Source: Candidatus Parcubacteria bacterium
Lineage (GTDB): Bacteria; Patescibacteriota; Minisyncoccia; Phycocordibacterales; CAIJYI01
Length of the DNA: 43,343 nt
Assembly: GCA_026395595.1 (NCBI GenBank)
Contig: JAPLYL010000001.1
Location: 72,174 to 115,516, forward strand
Reading direction: 5' to 3'
Below the pieces are notes generated by a model, which ran no database searches, was not told the origin of the DNA, and saw nothing but the letters and a program-made list of their open reading frames with translations. The translations under genes and the position numbers were made by a program. This document shows, one piece after another, positions 13,376 to 43,343 of this stretch. Numbering within the stretch: position 1 is the first letter of the stretch; each line of letters opens with the position of its first letter.

Positions 13376-13411
13376 CAACAAAAAAATCCGCTCACCGCGG
13401 ATTTTTCTTTG

Positions 13412-13485
13412 TGCCCAGGGGCAGAGTTGAACTGCCGACCCTTGGTTCTTCAGACCAATGCTCTAACCAACTGAGCTACCTGGGC
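13412..13485 (-). tRNA. tRNA-Phe(GAA)
   Basis: GCCCAGG/CCTGGGC acceptor, TTGGT-CTGAAGA-ACCAA anticodon arm. Confidence 0.95.
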
Positions 13486-13605
13486 ATTTTCTCAAAATTT
13501 TGTTTTTGTGTCTTTCTGTCCAAAACAGCTACCTGGGGCTGTTTTATTCTTCTGTCTATTGTCTATTTATACTCGTTTTTGGCTCTTTTGTAAAGAAATC
13601 GCGAT

Positions 13606-14773: not shown

Positions 14774-15259
14774 TCAAACAAAGTATTCTTTTAATTTCTT
14801 TGTACTTTCTCTTATCTTTATCAATTCAAATTCATTGGAATATTCTTCTTTCGCAAAATCCATTATCTTCATGACATTATTAACTTTTCTTTTATACTCA
14901 AACATCCATGAGTGCCAAGGAAACATCCAAACATGAAAATGAGACGAGGAGCTTGGTTCTTCTTGAACGATAGTTATTTCGTCAATTCCCAATTTTTCTT
15001 TCATCGCCCTCCTGCATTTAATTAAAAAACGACAGAGGTCTGTTTGTTCGGCATCTGTAAATTCCAGAATAGATTTAACATGTCTTTTAGACGCGATAAT
15101 TACAAACCCTTCTATCGGATATTCAAAATCTTGTTCAGCAACAAAATATTCAGTTTCTGCGATTCTTTCGACAGGCAAAGAAACCTCTCCACTCTGAATT
15201 GAACAAGCGATACAATCAATATTATGTTCTGTTCCTGATATATCTTTTATCGTGACCAT
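14774..15259 (-). CDS. HIT-family nucleotide hydrolase
   Basis: N-terminal CIAC, PIEGFVII..KRHV, HFHVWMFP. ORF-track start lies within the tRNA scaffold so start moved to MVTIK. Confidence 0.75.
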   Translation of the reverse strand: MVTIKDISGTEHNIDCIACSIQSGEVSLPVERIAETEYFVAEQDFEYPIEGFVIIASKRHVKSILEFTDAEQTDLCRFLIKCRRAMKEKLGIDEITIVQEEPSSSSHFHVWMFPWHSWMFEYKRKVNNVMKIMDFAKEEYSNEFELIKIRESTKKLKEYFV

Positions 15260-15295
15260 AATCGTGACTTTCAGCTTTAAATTTTTAATCTTCGT

Positions 15296-15502
15296 TGGTG
15301 CCCTCGGCAGGAATCGAACCTGCATCAGCTCGCCCCGTTATAAATTGTCCTCTTGGCAGGAATCGGACCTGCATCAGCTCGTTAGGAGTGAGCTATTCTA
15401 TCCATTGAACTACAAGAGGAAAATTTATAACAGGGTGAGCTATTCCCCACCCGACTGAACGACATCAGTCGTTCGGGCGGGTATCCATTGAACTACGAAG
15501 GC
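15296..15502 (-). ncRNA. Outer tRNA-Arg-like scaffold with two insertions, one containing a whole tRNA
   Basis: GCCTTCG/CGAGGGC acceptor + ACCA, D-arm split by a 36-nt hairpin, canonical GCAGG-TTCGATT-CCTGC T-arm; anticodon loop replaced by 15333-15435. Confidence 0.75.
15348..15419 (-). tRNA. tRNA-Arg(CCT), nested inner copy
   Basis: CCTCTTG/CAAGAGG acceptor, GTTC-AATGGATA-GAAT D-arm, GCTCA-CTCCTAA-CGAGC anticodon arm, T-loop TCCGATT. Confidence 0.8.
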
Positions 15503-15512
15503 AGACGACGAA

Positions 15513-15588
15513 GATTTATGATTTAAGATTCAGGATTTATGAACACGCAGGTCGTCATTCTTAAATCTTTAATCATAAACCTTAAATC
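15513..15588. repeat. Inverted heptamer-repeat element (GATTTA(T/A))n ... ((T/C)TAAATC)n
   Basis: GATTTAT GATTTAA GATTCAG GATTTAT and complementary arm CTTAAAT CTTTAAT CATAAAC CTTAAAT. Confidence 0.75.
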
Positions 15589-15598
15589 CCCGTTCGTT

Positions 15599-15838
15599 CT
15601 AGAGTCCGAGAGAGCTGACGAGTCTTGGTTTGTCAAAACCGATAACCGGCTCGCTTTCCCCTTCTACGGTAATGACGGGAACCCCCATTTGTCCGGTAAG
15701 TTCCAACATTTCTTTTCTTTTTTCAATATCCGTCCCGACATTGTATTCTTCAAAAGGCACGTTATTGGCGGTGAAAAAATCTTTCGCCATTTTGCAATAC
15801 ATGCACGTAGAAGTGGTGTATATTTTTACTTTTTTCAT
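15599..15838 (-). CDS. Glutaredoxin-like (NrdH-redoxin) protein
   Basis: YTTSTCMYC, TGQMGVPVI, VIGFD. Confidence 0.9.
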   Translation of the reverse strand: MKKVKIYTTSTCMYCKMAKDFFTANNVPFEEYNVGTDIEKRKEMLELTGQMGVPVITVEGESEPVIGFDKPRLVSSLGL

Positions 15839-17256: not shown

Positions 17257-17264
17257 GGGACGAT

Positions 17265-17336
17265 GATTTAAGATTTATGATTTATGAAAAAACGTAAACT
17301 TCGTATTCTTAAATCCTAAATCATGAATCGTAAATC
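17265..17336. repeat. Inverted heptamer-repeat element, same family as 15513-15588
   Basis: GATTTAA GATTTAT GATTTAT GAA ... CTTAAAT CCTAAAT CATGAAT CGTAAAT. Confidence 0.75.
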
Positions 17337-17347
17337 ACTTATTCATA

Positions 17348-17725
17348 CTACCTGAAAAAATTTAAAAATCTAGACCATGCGGACGGCTCGGGGGCTGACT
17401 CTTTTGTTGTGGTTGCTTGTGGAGTATCAACCACTAAAATAACTCCTTCCCCTTCCTTCCCTACCATAAATTTTTCTCGGATCTCGGATTCTTGACCTCT
17501 CTCTGTTTTCAAAAAACTTACTCTTTTTTCCAAGTCTGTTTTTCTTTCTTCCAGACTACGAAGTTCGGCTTTGGCTTCGTTCGCTTTCCGAACCGCTTCT
17601 CGATTGGTTTGATACAATCCCCATATCCGACTCGCAAAAAACACAAAAAGGATTGCTAAAAAAACCAGCATCGGACTAGAGTACATCAGCCGTCTTGTCT
17701 TTTGTTTTTCTTTAAAATCAAGCAT
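17348..17725 (-). CDS. Septum formation initiator (FtsB/DivIC family)
   Basis: Basic N-terminus, one TM, coiled coil, ESEIREKFMVGKEGEGVILVV. Confidence 0.78.
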   Translation of the reverse strand: MLDFKEKQKTRRLMYSSPMLVFLAILFVFFASRIWGLYQTNREAVRKANEAKAELRSLEERKTDLEKRVSFLKTERGQESEIREKFMVGKEGEGVILVVDTPQATTTKESAPEPSAWSRFLNFFR

Positions 17726-39702: not shown

Positions 39703-40091
39703 AAAAAACTCAAAGAGTTTTTGTATTATAAATGTTACAGAATCGTTTCGCAAGCCTTTTAATCAAAAAATCGTAAAGTAAAAACGTGATTTTCAACTTT
39801 CCTAATAGGAATCGATATATTAGTACTTCTCGGCTCAACGCCTCGCAGCGCTTACACCTAAAGCCTATCACCTAATCATCTCTTAGGGATCTCAAACGAT
39901 TCCTCATCTTGAAGCTGGCTTCGATCTTAGATGCTTTCAGATCTTATCCATTCCCGACATAGTTACTCGGCGGTGCTCCTGGCGGAACAGCCGATACACC
40001 AGAGGTCAGTTCATTCCGGTCCTCTCGTACTAGGAACAAATCTTCTCAAGAATCAACGCCTGCAGTAGATAGGAGACCAACCTGTCTCACG

Positions 40092-40636
40092 CAACAGTAG
40101 CTGTTAGCTTTCAGCTTTTAGCTGTTAGCTTCACAACGCCGTCATTACTAACGGGATCGGACTATATTATAACCTGTTCAAAAATTGAATGAAGGTTGCT
40201 GACGTGTAGTCTCTACGGGCAACGCTTGCGCATTTTCCCTCGGTATTATCCTCGTTATTTTAACCTAACAGCTAACAGCTGAAAGCTAAAACCTCGCTCG
40301 GACTTCACCGATATAAGTCAACTTGATTCAAATATATTTCTATACTTGACCGCCGTGATTTGATTGATTTCTATCTCAGAGTCTTTTTTTAGACTCCTTT
40401 TTCTTTATTTCTTCATTTAGACGAAAATTCCTCGCGGGATTCAAACTGTTCATAAACCGTAGCCTATTACAGATTTGATATCTCTCCGCGTTTTCTATAT
40501 TTTTTGTAACTTATTTTCGTCGTCATTCTGAACTTGATTCAGAATCCACGTCGTTAACGCCGTGGATTGCGGGTCAAGCCCGCAATGACAAGAAGGTATG
40601 AAGTTACTTTCCACTTGTTGGATGTACCGTTTATAA
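40092..40636 (-). mobile_element. Group I intron (IA3-like) at 23S position about 2593, no intact homing endonuclease
   Basis: Interrupts AAACCGT|CGTGAGACAG; ends in G; CTTATATCGGTGAA, AATACCGAG, GTAGAGACTA, ATATAGTCC core; IGS TCACG-GCGGT (40349-40358) can form P10 and P1 with a U.G pair. Confidence 0.88.
40522..40589. repeat. RPE/REP-like palindromic element inside the intron
   Basis: GTCATTCTGAACTTGATTCAGAATCCAC...GTGGATTGCGGGTCAAGCCCGCAATGAC. Confidence 0.65.
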
Positions 40637-41293
40637 ACGGTTTGAACCCAGCTCGCGTATCTTTTTAATTGGCGAACAGCCAAACCCTTGGGACCTTCTC
40701 CAGCCCCAGGATAAGATGAGCCGACATCGAGGTGCCGAACTCCGCCGTCGATATGGACTCTTGGGCGGAACTAGCCTGTTATCCCCAGAGTAGCTTTTAT
40801 CCGTTGAGCTTCCCCCGCATCTAATGCGAAAGGTCGGATCACTTAGCCCCGCTTTCGCGGCTGCTCGGGATGTACCCCTTACAGTGAAGCCAGCTTATGC
40901 CTATACACTATCGGCACGGTTTCCATTCGCGCCTAGCTGACCTTTGGGCTCCTCCGTTACTTTTTAGGAGGATAGCGCCCCACTAAAACTGCCCACCAGA
41001 TACTGTCTCCGAACGTTTTTGCCGTTCAGGTTAGTGTATGCCTCGAAACAGAGTGGTATTTCACTGTTGGATCCATGACAACCAAGATCGTCACTTCAAA
41101 TCCTCCCACCTATGCTACGCAGTCACAAAACATACACAATATCAAGCTACAGTAAAGCTTCTGGGGTCTTTTCGTCTAACTGCAGGTAGCCGGCATCTTC
41201 ACCGGCACTGTATTTTCACCGAGCTACTCCCCGAGACAGTTCCCCAGTCATTACGCCATTCGTGCACGTCGGAATTTACCCGACAAGGAATTG

Positions 41294-41332
<39 letters not shown>

Positions 41333-41480
41333 CAGGGCTTATAACAGCCAGCTTGATATAATCGCACCACCGTTATTTGACCTTCTGGCATTGGTCAGGC
41401 GTCACCCCCTATACATCCTCTTGCGAGTTCGCAGGGAGCTGTGTTTTTGATAAACAGTTGCCAGGGAAACTTTCGCTGCG

Positions 41481-41633
41481 GCCGGCACCTTCATTCAAAT
41501 TTCAAATCTGAAAGAAGCGCTCAGCATAACAAACAAAATTTCTCTTATACCATATAATTTGAACTTTTTGTCTCGTCTCGTTTTTGTCGCTGACACCATT
41601 CTTCAACCTTAAAAGCTGAATGAAGGTGCCGGC
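41481..41633 (-). other. Insertion (IVS-like) in the 23S helix 63 region
   Basis: 17-bp perfect IR GCCGGCACCTTCATTCA/TGAATGAAGGTGCCGGC around a 119-nt AT-rich loop, next to conserved CCGTAACTTCGGGATAAGG. Confidence 0.7.
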
Positions 41634-42271
41634 AAGCCTTATCCCGAAGTTACGGCTGCTTTTTTGCCGAGTTCCTTGGGGAGCAATCACTCGTTCGCCT
41701 TGGTCTTCTCGACCTGACTACCTGTGTCGGTTTACGGTACGGATTCCGTGCATTTATGCTTAGAAGTTTTTCTCGGAAGTCTGCTCTGCCATATTCCTCA
41801 GGGTTTCCCCTAAAGTTTTCGCTCTTCTTGAGTTCTCCACTAAAGGACGTTCCCCGGATTTACCAAAGGAACTCTCTCAAAGTACGAACGCAAATCCAAT
41901 AATGCGCATAACATACAAAACTTCGTCACTCCATCGCAATGCAAGGAAGTCATGGAATATTAACCATGTGTCCATCGGATGCGGCTTTCGCCATCTCCTT
42001 AGGCCCGACTAACCCTTCGCTGATTACCATCGCAAAGGAAACCTTAGTCTTTCGGCGCGCGGGGATCTCACCCGCGTTGCGGTTACTTGTGCCAACATTC
42101 TCACTTCTTGACGCTCCACCATGGGTCACCCCTTTGGCTTCACTGCAGTCAAGAACGTTCTCCTACCACGCCCGCTTTCCGAAGAAAGCGGACATCCTCA
42201 GTTTCGGTACTACGTTTAACCCCGATCATCTTCGGCGCAAGATCTCTTAGTGAGTGAGCTGTTACGCTTTC

Positions 42272-42303
<32 letters not shown>

Positions 42304-43343
42304 TCACTGTCTGAGAAATTTCACCTCCTTAAGCGTACTTAACGTAGATTTAGGGACCTTAAATGGAGGTCCGGGCTGTTTCCCTTTTGACCAATGGAGC
42401 TTAGCCCCCACAGTCTAACTGCCGAGTAATGGCTTTCAGTATTCGGAGTTTGATAGAGTTGACGAGATTGCTCCCTGTTCAACTCTTCCAGTGCTCTACC
42501 CCTGAAAGGTAACCTCGACGCTAACCCAAAAGCTATTTCGGAGAAAACCAGCTATTACCTGAATCGATTAGCTTTTCACTCCTTGCCTCAAGTCATCCGA
42601 TAGTATTGTACGGCTAACCGGTTCGGGCCTTCTTTCGCCTTTCGGCGAAATGCACCCTGCTCAAGGCAAGCTCTTCAGGCTTCGGGTCTAATGTGTAATA
42701 CTAACGCGCTATTAACACTCGCTTTCGCTGCGGCTCCATCCAGTAACGGACTTAACCTAGGCAATACACATTAACTCGTTGGCTCATTCTTCAATAGGCA
42801 CGCCATGACGGGACAGCAAGCTGCCCGCTCTGACTCCTTGTAAGCATATGGTTTCAGGATCTATTTCACTCCCCTCACCGGGGTTCTTTTCACCTTTCCC
42901 TTACGGTACTTGTTCACTATCGGTCATCAAGGAATATTTAGGCTTGGCAGATGGTCCTGCCTGATTCACACCAGATGTTTGTGTCCTGTGCTACTCGGGA
43001 TCCTGCTCGCGTACGCTCCGCTTTCGACTACCGGGCTTTCACCGTCTCTGGCTGTACCTTCCAGTACTTTCATCTAGCTTCACGTATCACTTTATACAGT
43101 CCCACAACCCCGACAGAAATTGCTTCCTGCGGTTTGGCCTCTTTCGCTTTCGCTCGCCGCTACTTACAAAATCACTTTCTTGTTTTCTTTTCCTGAGGGT
43201 ACTAAGATGTTTCAATTCCCCTCGTTCGCCTCGCTAAAGATATTTATTCTCTCTAGGATACACCTTGCGGTGTGGGTTGCCCCATTCGGATATCACCGGA
43301 TCAAAGCCCTCTTGGCGGCTCCCCGATGCTTTTCGCAGCCTGA

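Follow-up and report, generated by a model that had tools for sequence, protein, structure and literature searches.

The locus described here lies on the minus strand of a 43,343-nucleotide (nt) stretch of contig JAPLYL010000001.1 from a Candidatus Parcubacteria bacterium (assembly GCA_026395595.1), referred to below as the window. Between positions 15502 and 15296, a complete transfer RNA (tRNA) gene, tRNA-Arg(CCT), is enclosed by the two halves of a second tRNA sequence; we call the enclosed gene the inner copy and the two halves the outer copy, or outer remnant. The study genome (G000) comprises 0.98 Mb in 8 contigs, has a GC content of 42%, and is 90.9% complete. Related genomes are numbered G002-G006, and L-numbers denote loci or contigs of other genomes or metagenomes. 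Calls of tRNA genes were made with ARAGORN and with the Rfam model RF00005 (gathering score 29), and protein domains were assigned with Pfam.

Organization of the nested locus

Read 5′ to 3′ on the minus strand, the 207-nt unit begins with positions 1-21 of the outer remnant (15482-15502; GCCTTCG-TA-GTTC-AATGGATA), which include the acceptor 5′ strand, U8-A9, the D-stem 5′ strand, and the D-loop. A GC-rich hairpin of 36 nt (15446-15481) is placed exactly between D-loop A21 and G22 and is followed by outer positions 22-31 (15436-15445; GAAT-A-GCTCA), i.e., the D-stem 3′ strand, A26, and the anticodon-stem 5′ strand. The place of the outer anticodon loop is taken by a 5′ linker arm, CCCTGTTATAAATT (15435-15422), with two additional letters, TT (together 15420-15435). 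Inner tRNA-Arg(CCT) comes next (15348-15419), with the acceptor stem CCTCTTG/CAAGAGG, the T-loop TCCGATT, and no encoded CCA. A single C and the 3′ linker arm AATTTATAACGGGG (15346-15333; 15333-15347 with the C) follow, the two arms pairing over 14 base pairs (bp). The unit is closed by outer positions 39-73 (15332-15299), which read CGAGC, a variable loop, GCAGG-TTCGATT-CCTGC, CGAGGGC, and A73, with a CCA directly attached (15298-15296; 15296-15332 in all). The insert at the outer anticodon loop thus measures ca. 104 nt, 72 of which are the inner tRNA.

This tRNA-in-tRNA arrangement and its list of parts had been put forward by a first-pass annotation of the same DNA, and the sequence is as it was claimed. 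ARAGORN makes a single call in the unit, the inner copy as tRNA-Arg(CCT), to which Rfam assigns 59.1 bits (versus the gathering score of 29). The predicted fold shows the nest: it includes both acceptor stems, the hairpin, the linker stem, and both T arms, and its energy of -98.2 kcal/mol (z = -9.4) was equaled in none of 200 shuffles of the 207-nt unit. The 14-bp linker stem of the annotation is also present, with the qualification that one of its pairs is G.U. The near-identity of the two copies holds, as positions 8-31 are identical at 24 of 24 and positions 39-64 at 25 of 26 places; the A31.C39 mismatch is indeed common to both, but it is a genus-wide trait of this tRNA. The acceptor strands differ, at 4 of 7 (5′) and 3 of 7 (3′) positions.

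Assembly support and further copies

Misassembly, the concern raised with the initial description, was checked against other assemblies. A 977-nt Logan contig of run X1 matches 15150-15540, and thus spans the unit, with 0 differences and a depth of 137 (X1 is a possible source run of the genome, though the Logan contig is a separate assembly), and three other assemblies agree with the architecture. In run X2 the flanks alone are covered, at a depth of 4, which neither backs nor contradicts the nest.

The matching architecture was found in G003, a genome of the same genus (90% identity over the unit), and in two metagenome contigs, L021, where it is complete, and L023, which starts inside the 5′ linker. 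Among 41 related genomes searched with the unit, matches extending beyond the inner tRNA were obtained in G000 and G003 only. Comparisons of nested copies therefore refer to these four, of which three are complete and L023 is cut by the contig end. The remnant and the inner tRNA are spaced by 16 nt in G000 and by 27-31 nt in G003 and L021. Between G000 and G003, flanking genes are 81-84% identical, and the intergenic flanks cannot be aligned.

The inner copy as the probable working gene and the outer copy as the split ancestral gene

In three species of the same genus (G006, G004, and G002), one plain tRNA-Arg(CCT) gene directly follows the same glutaredoxin gene that lies upstream of the nest (15599-15838, minus strand; Pfam PF00462, E 1.2e-18), and the end of the glutaredoxin gene also precedes a plain tRNA in L003, L005, L006, and L010. 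The glutaredoxin gene serves as the synteny anchor of the ancestral tRNA-Arg(CCT) site. When compared with the single gene of the relatives, the outer copy agrees at 5-6 of 7 positions of the acceptor 5′ strand and at 7-8 of 8 positions of the acceptor 3′ strand plus discriminator (3-4 of 7 and 4-5 of 8, respectively, for the inner copy), while over body positions 8-31 both copies match the plain gene equally. Since the plain syntenic gene of the relatives resembles the outer copy, these comparisons indicate that the outer copy is the ancestral tRNA-Arg(CCT), now split, and the inner copy a newcomer. The inner acceptor is of the C1-G72 type, which is also present in three other Arg tRNAs of G000, in the free tRNA-Arg(CCT) of L022, and in the tRNA-Arg(GCG) of L176. 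The acceptor differences between inner and outer copies are differences between two pre-existing tRNA types.

Whether the genome has another tRNA-Arg(CCT), a question left by the first-pass annotation, can be answered for the 90.9% of it that is assembled: a CCT anticodon was found in 1 of 38 ARAGORN tRNAs and in 1 of 39 Infernal matches, in both cases the inner copy. The inner tRNA is identical at 73 of 73 positions in G003 and L021, and differs by one T-loop letter in L023.

Two smaller observations concern tRNA sequences of this kind. The 3′ trailer is similar to the one behind the free tRNA of L022, a short likeness to be taken as a lead only. Single-copy tRNAs with C55 (T-loop TCCGATT) rather than the near-universal U55 occur in several genomes of the order (G000 C5:47857-47928, L007, and L018).

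Selection on the outer fold

The first-pass annotation had inferred selection on both folds, on the grounds that the two acceptor stems differ yet both pair, and that the copies appear to hold complementary parts (TTC and CCA on the outer one, the anticodon and TCC on the inner one). The pairing of both acceptor stems is correct for G000. In the three complete copies, however, 6 pairs of the outer acceptor stem are invariant and one is broken (C.A in G003), there is no compensatory change, and the differences between the stems go back, as argued above, to two pre-existing tRNA types; selection on both folds is not supported. A pair count on the four copies gave 64 pairs, with 97% of cells paired and 3 pairs changed on both sides, 2 of them in the linker stem and 1 in the outer T stem. 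The covariation that the annotation had proposed to look for is thus seen in two compensated pairs of the linker stem, which is retained in all four copies, and is missing from the outer acceptor stem. The outer T stem pairs in three of the four copies; one pair is broken, and G53 is lost (T at position 53) in G003. The double change in this stem, GCAAG/CTTGC in L023, is the state of the plain gene of G006, and because it equals this ancestral state it can be inherited.

The anticodon arm of the outer copy has fared differently in each copy. No anticodon-loop letters are left in G000; G003 keeps CTCGTAA and a linker stem longer by 4 bp; L021 has 15 unrelated letters at this place, and its anticodon-stem 3′ strand reads CGAAA, so that the stem is lost. 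The 5′ linker region of both G003 and L021 contains 11-15 extra letters and forms a stem 4 bp longer than that of G000. A functional outer copy obtained by removal of the inserts, as envisaged in the initial description, could not be recovered: ARAGORN called no tRNA in any of six insert-free outer composites made from G000, G003, and L021.

CCA is encoded in the outer copy of G000 only, the other copies having CTA, CTT, or CAG, and the two T-loop versions, TTCGATT and TCCGATT, trade places between the inner and the outer tRNA from one nested copy to another, a pattern that suggests gene conversion between the T arms. The TCCGATT loop is also present in single-copy tRNAs (tRNA-Ala(CGC) of G000, L007, and L018), and the majority of G000 tRNAs have no encoded CCA. 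On these grounds the argument from complementary parts falls. The outer sequence does not constitute a tRNA, and selection on its fold has little in its favor. The outer 5′ piece is nonetheless identical at 21 of 21 positions in G000, G003, and L021, and the hairpin nearly so.

A hairpin family in tRNA-like loops

A scan of species-representative genomes with the pattern of the 36-nt hairpin returned at least 125 copies in at least 123 loci (L024-L146), which belong, according to record titles, to many Patescibacteria lineages, Bacteroidota, and Ignavibacteria; a few hairpin-bearing bins are labeled Gammaproteobacteria or Bdellovibrionales and may be mis-binned. G000 has one copy and one variant, and at least three records elsewhere contain 3-6 loci each. 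Neither the hairpin pattern nor the junction between linker and inner tRNA had a match in 2.9 million viral contigs. When 20 hairpin loci were compared with Rfam at a permissive threshold, tRNAs and chance matches were obtained, and the hairpin fitted no family.

At least 31 hairpin loci are inside tRNA-like sequence, as judged by exact matches to an adjacent intact tRNA or by a tRNA profile after removal of the hairpin. Among 21 profile-confirmed copies, 17 interrupt the profile at the end of the D-loop (positions 18-23), and positions 14 and 35 are interrupted by 2 copies each, whereas no copy lies in a stem; the hairpin shares the strand of the tRNA in 13 cases and is on the opposite one in 8. 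Removal of the hairpin in silico yielded a spanning tRNA in a single locus (L043) and doubtful calls in L076. Since removal almost never restores a tRNA, hairpin carriers are mostly partial copies, not whole tRNAs with one insert; they adjoin an intact copy of the same tRNA. Mapping of the remnant ends by gap-tolerant alignment over-extended, and what was retained from it are the 31 upstream 5′ copies and the first insertion place.

GIY-YIG cassettes at tRNA genes

A local profile detected an open reading frame (ORF) for a GIY-YIG protein of ca. 79 amino acids (aa) beside the hairpin in 15 of the 123 listed loci, and Pfam PF01541 confirmed all 10 of the GIY-YIG ORFs that were tested (E 2.5e-9 to 1.1e-13). 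The protein is abundant in Patescibacteria: 184 relatives were found at E<=1e-5, labeled merely "putative endonuclease", and NCBIfam had no matching model for any of three such proteins. The combination of GIY-YIG ORF and hairpin at a tRNA gene, which we call a cassette, is a class delimited within the present analysis. A cassette is present in G000 itself, outside the window, at tRNA-Ala(TGC) (contig C7:11987-12365; L149/L151). It consists of tRNA-Ala positions 1-22 with a 32-nt GC hairpin between A21 and G22, positions 23-29, the ORF, and intact tRNA-Ala. The ORF (C7:12061-12300) encodes 79 aa, and its stop codon is U8-A9-G10 of the intact tRNA-Ala(TGC) gene (C7:12291-12365). In G003, a sister species, the same upstream flank is fused directly to a plain tRNA-Ala, and the site is thus empty.

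A sample independent of the hairpin was obtained with the G000 GIY-YIG protein as a query against 151 genomes of the order, 54 of which had a match; 30 loci were fetched. Half of the fetched ORFs (15 of 30) abut a same-strand ARAGORN tRNA, whose first letter falls between -14 and +17 nt relative to the stop-codon end. Just upstream of 9 of these 15 ORFs, the beginning of the abutting tRNA recurs as an exact copy over 9 nt or more, and in 7 of the 9 a perfect GC-rich inverted repeat begins 12-25 nt into the piece. Several hairpin families occur in the cassettes. The base rate of an upstream 5′-end copy (9 nt) is 3 of 38 tRNAs in G000 and 5 of 36 tRNAs in control loci; in this lineage, 5′ tRNA remnants are common also where no such nuclease gene is nearby.

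Three other loci bear on the nest. L082, at a tRNA-Phe of Saccharibacteria, is nested alike, with positions 1-20, a hairpin, a few tRNA letters, a decayed GIY-YIG frame, and an intact tRNA; 2 nt past the intact tRNA, an exact copy of positions 30-55 leads into a further GC hairpin, which is placed in the T-loop. In L112 (tRNA-Arg TCT), a nest that has no ORF, a 5′ remnant and an intact tRNA are accompanied by a 3′ copy whose D, anticodon, and T loops all contain insertions, that of the anticodon loop being the 36-nt family hairpin. L096 (tRNA-Arg CCT of Bacteroidales) contains an intact tRNA, an ORF, and a 3′ remnant with a hairpin in the T-loop. Given these analogues, the nested Arg locus of G000 fits a product of the same kind without the ORF. 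As in the cassettes, part of the tRNA (outer positions 1-31) stands upstream of an intact copy, and a GC palindrome is inserted in the D-loop of the remnant. Because a GIY-YIG ORF is missing, the link to the cassettes is made through the common hairpin, the layout of the remnant, and analogy, and because just 16 nt (27-31 in G003 and L021) and no ORF separate remnant and inner tRNA, we file the locus as a derivative or footprint and not as a full member of the class.

GIY-YIG ORFs of the same family were also seen away from tRNA genes. In L162, L163, L164, L170, and L180 they are bracketed by inverted repeats of ca. 13 nt and inserted exactly at the start codon of a host gene, e.g., the DNA ligase gene in L162. 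The host ATG and first codons are duplicated on both sides, and the ORF stop overlaps the restored ATG (ATGA), an overlap that suggests the hijacking of translation starts with coupling. The linker arms of the nest resemble the inverted repeats around the start-codon ORFs of L162, L163, L164, and L180, a short likeness that is a lead only. In L153, L154, L159, L165, L174, L178, L179, and others, GIY-YIG matches are found 60-140 nt from a contig end. The cassettes are probably under-counted, as duplicated tRNA pieces seem to break short-read assemblies.

Origin and expression of the nest

The first-pass annotation had offered three origins for the nest: a precursor scaffold that releases the inner tRNA, a decoy, or what remains of a tRNA-targeting element by which the disrupted gene is restored. 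The last fits best, although the argument from two selected folds that accompanied the proposals fails. We favor the reading that the locus is an ancestral tRNA-Arg(CCU) gene interrupted twice, and the footprint left by a mobile cassette that targets tRNA genes and makes good the damage to them, and assign it a probability of about 0.62. Selfish cassettes would enter tRNA genes, leave behind a hairpin-loaded remnant, and supply a function-restoring copy, the nuclease gene being absent in this case. The ancestral tRNA-Arg(CCU) of a Nomurabacteria-type genus would have been interrupted once by the GC hairpin in the D-loop and once, at the former anticodon loop, by a palindrome-bracketed complete replacement tRNA-Arg(CCU), with the element inserting at about position 38/39 together with the gene-restoring copy. 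The usual cassettes appear to bring a 5′ half and to reuse the old 3′ half; if a whole tRNA with a different acceptor stem was brought in here, the old 3′ half would be left over. An exchange between the inner and the outer 3′ half would then set the inner acceptor 5′ strand against the outer 3′ strand, spoil the stem, and destroy the sole Arg-CCU tRNA, which may be why the nest has lasted in four lineages.

According to the same reading, the inner tRNA works and the outer halves persist as the transcribed leader and trailer of its gene. There is no room for a separate promoter between the hairpin and inner position 1, and transcription from the upstream signals of the old gene would produce a precursor of ca. 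207 nt. The linker arms prolong the inner acceptor stem into a duplex of ca. 22-26 bp that would act as a processing stem; the duplex that brackets the inner tRNA consists of 14-18 bp of linker and 7-8 bp of acceptor stem and exceeds the ca. 20 bp taken to mark such stems. RNase III may open the stem, RNase P trim the 5′ end, and, after 3′ trimming, the CCA-adding enzyme complete the tRNA. In ribosomal RNAs (rRNAs), RNase III processing stems are likewise long duplexes of leader and trailer around the mature RNA. RNase III is encoded in G000 (PF14622, 136.9 bits, C1:51543-51932), as are rnpA and the CCA-adding enzyme. The scan of the minus strand detected no terminator.

Several findings weigh against this reading. 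As to the cassette, a GIY-YIG ORF is found at the nested locus in none of the four copies, and G003, which has the nest, has no match to the G000 GIY-YIG protein at E<=1e-10. About two thirds of the listed hairpin copies are outside any tRNA context, often in the loops of unrelated hairpins or in short AT-rich repeats, and the nested copies number just four, one of them truncated at a contig end. The body of the inner copy is of the local genus type and its acceptor stem alone is foreign, a combination that may be explicable by gene conversion or a chimeric origin only. The outer 5′ piece and the hairpin change more slowly than junk would be expected to, which may be due to a function, to gene conversion, or to a recent spread. 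Why the restored tRNA escapes cutting is not accounted for by a homing model. With regard to expression, the 90.9% complete genome yielded neither a type A RNase P RNA nor a true RNase Z, no sigma-70-like promoter was found on the minus strand (a consensus that may not suit the phylum), and RNA run X18 matched a single foreign tRNA piece only, other RNA runs being listed at small shares.

Four other explanations were weighed. An assembly artefact from repeated tRNA segments would be invited by the identical runs that inner and outer copies share and by the tendency of relatives' contigs to end at such places (L023 inside the linker, and many GIY-YIG matches 60-140 nt from contig ends), but given the spanning Logan contig of depth 137 with 0 differences, and three further assemblies that have the same architecture with substitutions of their own, its probability is practically negligible. 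We consider a split or intron-containing tRNA, in which the inner tRNA is excised and the outer halves are ligated into a second tRNA, to be highly improbable. The halves do lie on either side of an insert close to where introns canonically interrupt the anticodon loop, and G003 retains a 7-nt loop-like CTCGTAA; that loop would, however, read CGT (Thr) on an Arg body, and G000 and L021 have no anticodon loop at all. The splicing endonuclease PF01974 had 0 matches at E<=1 in the 90.9% of the genome that is assembled, the minimum-energy folds of the four copies, judged by eye, are continuous helices with single mismatches and no bulge-helix-bulge, and the Rfam scan of the window gave no group I intron match.

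The whole 207-nt molecule could alternatively be a functional double-fold RNA, its outer scaffold itself being selected as a decoy or for stabilization and processing by RNase P and the CCA enzyme, whose minimal substrate is an acceptor stem plus T arm. The very stable predicted fold (z = -9.4), the identity or near-identity of the outer acceptor 5′ strand, D arm, and hairpin in three lineages with unalignable flanks, and the outer T stem that is paired in three of four copies are what such a molecule would have. Against it stand the outer acceptor, in which there is no covariation and one G003 pair is broken, the mutated G53 of G003, the loss of the outer anticodon stem in L021 (CGAAA), and a CCA encoded in one of four copies; the sole outer T-stem double change is the G006 ancestral state and possibly inherited, and gene conversion, as in the T-loop swaps, can explain the conservation of parts common to the inner copy. 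We regard the double-fold RNA as quite unlikely. An accident of local replication or repair, such as fold-back synthesis or a template switch at the anticodon stem, would require no mobile element, the hairpin having arrived separately and all but the inner tRNA being neutral debris. In G003, L021, and L023 the linker arms are perfectly palindromic, and the palindrome takes in 4 nt of the outer anticodon-stem 3′ strand, a pattern predicted by fold-back synthesis; the body of the inner copy is identical to the outer, and short 5′ remnants without ORF or hairpin exist upstream of tRNA-Ile(TAT) and tRNA-Phe of G000, as do upstream 9-nt self-copies of the 5′ end at 5 of 36 control-locus tRNAs. Yet the inner acceptor differs at 4 of 7 pairs with just one other change in 58 nt, unlike a simple duplicate, and it equals an existing C1-type Arg stem (L176, L022). 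The layout of remnant, hairpin, and intact tRNA moreover recurs at many tRNAs beside a nuclease gene, and the hairpin is single-copy in G000 and hence did not come from transposition within this genome. Such an accident is in our view rather unlikely, and we retain the cassette footprint as the preferred reading.

More tentatively, and with somewhat more doubt than confidence, the nested tRNA may be viewed as the relic of an undescribed family of selfish elements in Patescibacteria, in which a 79-aa GIY-YIG gene and GC hairpins invade the loops of tRNA genes and repair them neither by splicing nor through duplicated att sites but by a carried spare tRNA, a 5′ half or a whole one. The nuclease gene would borrow its stop codon from the conserved U8-A9-G10 of the adjoining tRNA, and the hairpins in the discarded remnant may block recombination that deletes the element. 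In a bolder variant, hairpins would be tolerated in tRNA transcripts or removed from them, as a bacterial, protein-dependent tRNA mini-intron.

Relation to known systems

The initial description knew of no bacterial arrangement like this one, and the literature, in a coverage that left subscription journals and supplements outside, likewise yielded nothing on nested bacterial tRNAs or on GIY-YIG genes at tRNA genes, and no description of the hairpin sequence. Group I introns occur in the anticodon loops of bacterial tRNAs, and homing endonuclease genes, whether free-standing or intron-borne, resemble the cassettes in that a small nuclease gene accompanies an insertion in or near a tRNA anticodon loop and varies in presence among close relatives; tandem arrays such as L119 are what repeated homing would produce. 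Unlike in group I introns, the insert is too short, there is no Rfam intron match at the locus (no intron family reached the gathering score in the window, and the group I ribozyme core was not detected), and restoration is by a carried gene copy and not by splicing. The hairpin can be compared with mobile GC hairpin elements (PMC2800124), among which multicopy palindromes are inserted without destroying a frame or fold. Similar in being short, multicopy, and located in RNA genes are the GC clusters of yeast mitochondria, the repetitive hairpin elements of sponge mitochondria, and the palindromic elements of Rickettsia. The present family differs from these in that its 27 specified letters are kept almost unchanged across phyla, favors tRNA-like loops, and is linked to GIY-YIG genes. 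It is also unlike repetitive extragenic palindromic (REP) and miniature inverted-repeat transposable (MITE) elements, since G000 holds one copy and one variant, not many.

Integrative elements, according to PMC9897764, which cites Williams 2002 and Reiter 1989, target tRNA genes, rebuild the target, and leave a partial copy beside the complete one. The locus shares with them the tRNA target, insert-borne tRNA sequence that keeps the gene working, and a partial old copy left in place. It departs from them in an insert of ca. 104 nt rather than kilobases, in the absence of an integrase among the 7 neighboring ORFs scanned with Pfam, and in carrying a whole tRNA with both old halves left; the related cassettes duplicate the 5′ and not the 3′ part of the tRNA and have a GIY-YIG nuclease instead of an integrase. 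Disrupted tRNA genes of archaea and algae (split, permuted, or with several introns; PMC3218864, PMC3978253, and PMC4390854) are similarly interrupted in loops, including non-canonical D-loop positions, and may have an unusual order of pieces. They differ in that they need a bulge-helix-bulge and a splicing endonuclease, neither of which was found here, whereas the pieces of the nest are not rejoined and a spare gene serves.

Engineered tRNA scaffolds, which express an RNA from within the anticodon arm of a tRNA frame, are a man-made parallel in layout; here, in contrast, the embedded RNA is itself a tRNA, the frame is a decaying gene, and the processing stem is a predicted one. Mobile DNA classically lands in tRNA genes, and such targets are known to be spared by the att-site duplication of integrases and by self-splicing introns; the present locus, together with its relatives, suggests that they may also be spared in a third manner, through a spare gene or half of one. 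If correct, this would account for many "partial tRNA" calls and broken contigs among genomes of the candidate phyla radiation, would assign a role to the tiny GIY-YIG proteins, a very abundant and unstudied family, and would identify the 36-nt hairpin common to several phyla. A natural tRNA expressed inside a tRNA-shaped precursor would also be useful for the substrate rules of RNase P and RNase III. The practical consequence for annotation is that the inner gene alone should be called.

Neighboring features and other observations

Besides glutaredoxin, Pfam identifies as neighbors of the locus a weak HIT-like ORF, FolD, and a formyltransferase-like gene. An AT-rich imperfect palindrome (15504-15590, minus strand) adjoins the outer 5′ end on its upstream side and belongs to a dispersed repeat of G000. 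It is built of short units like GATTTAAG, is found in the window upstream of both the outer tRNA-Arg and tRNA-Gly(CCC) (15504-15590 and 17257-17360), and has further copies at C3:45742-45822, C7:26100-26550, C7:28934-28952, and C4:17056-17073; it is missing from the corresponding place in G003 and L021. In Bacteroidota and Ignavibacteria loci, the GC hairpin is flanked by short AT-rich repeats resembling those of G000.

Additional tRNA pieces were observed in G000. At C8:112206-112349, the intact tRNA-Ile(TAT) gene is preceded by a 5′ half of the same tRNA (positions 1 to ca. 38, with 2 substitutions) and then by an AT-rich spacer of 30 nt, with no hairpin or ORF; Infernal gives the half a weak match of 23.7 bits. 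In the window, a 14-nt near-copy of the 5′ end of tRNA-Phe(GAA) is located at 13526-13539 (minus strand), 40 nt upstream of the intact gene (13411-13485), and L004 and L010 were likewise flagged as having the 5′ end of tRNA-Phe copied upstream. At C5:86991-87283, the intron option of ARAGORN predicts a tRNA-Tyr(GTA) with a 222-nt insert, either an interrupted tRNA or a false call, in a genome that has two plain tRNA-Tyr genes. Among the 38 tRNAs of G000, none was found for Asn, Asp, Met, Ile-GAT, Lys-CTT, Gln-TTG, Thr-TGT, or Leu-TAG; the missing genes may be in the unassembled 9% of the genome or hidden by interruptions of the nested or cassette type.

Insertions in 23S rRNA genes occur in candidate-phyla bacteria. 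At the end of the window (39799-43343), a 23S rRNA match covers model positions 61-2925 in 3545 nt, ca. 680 nt beyond the model, and one or more such insertions are likely to be present in this gene.

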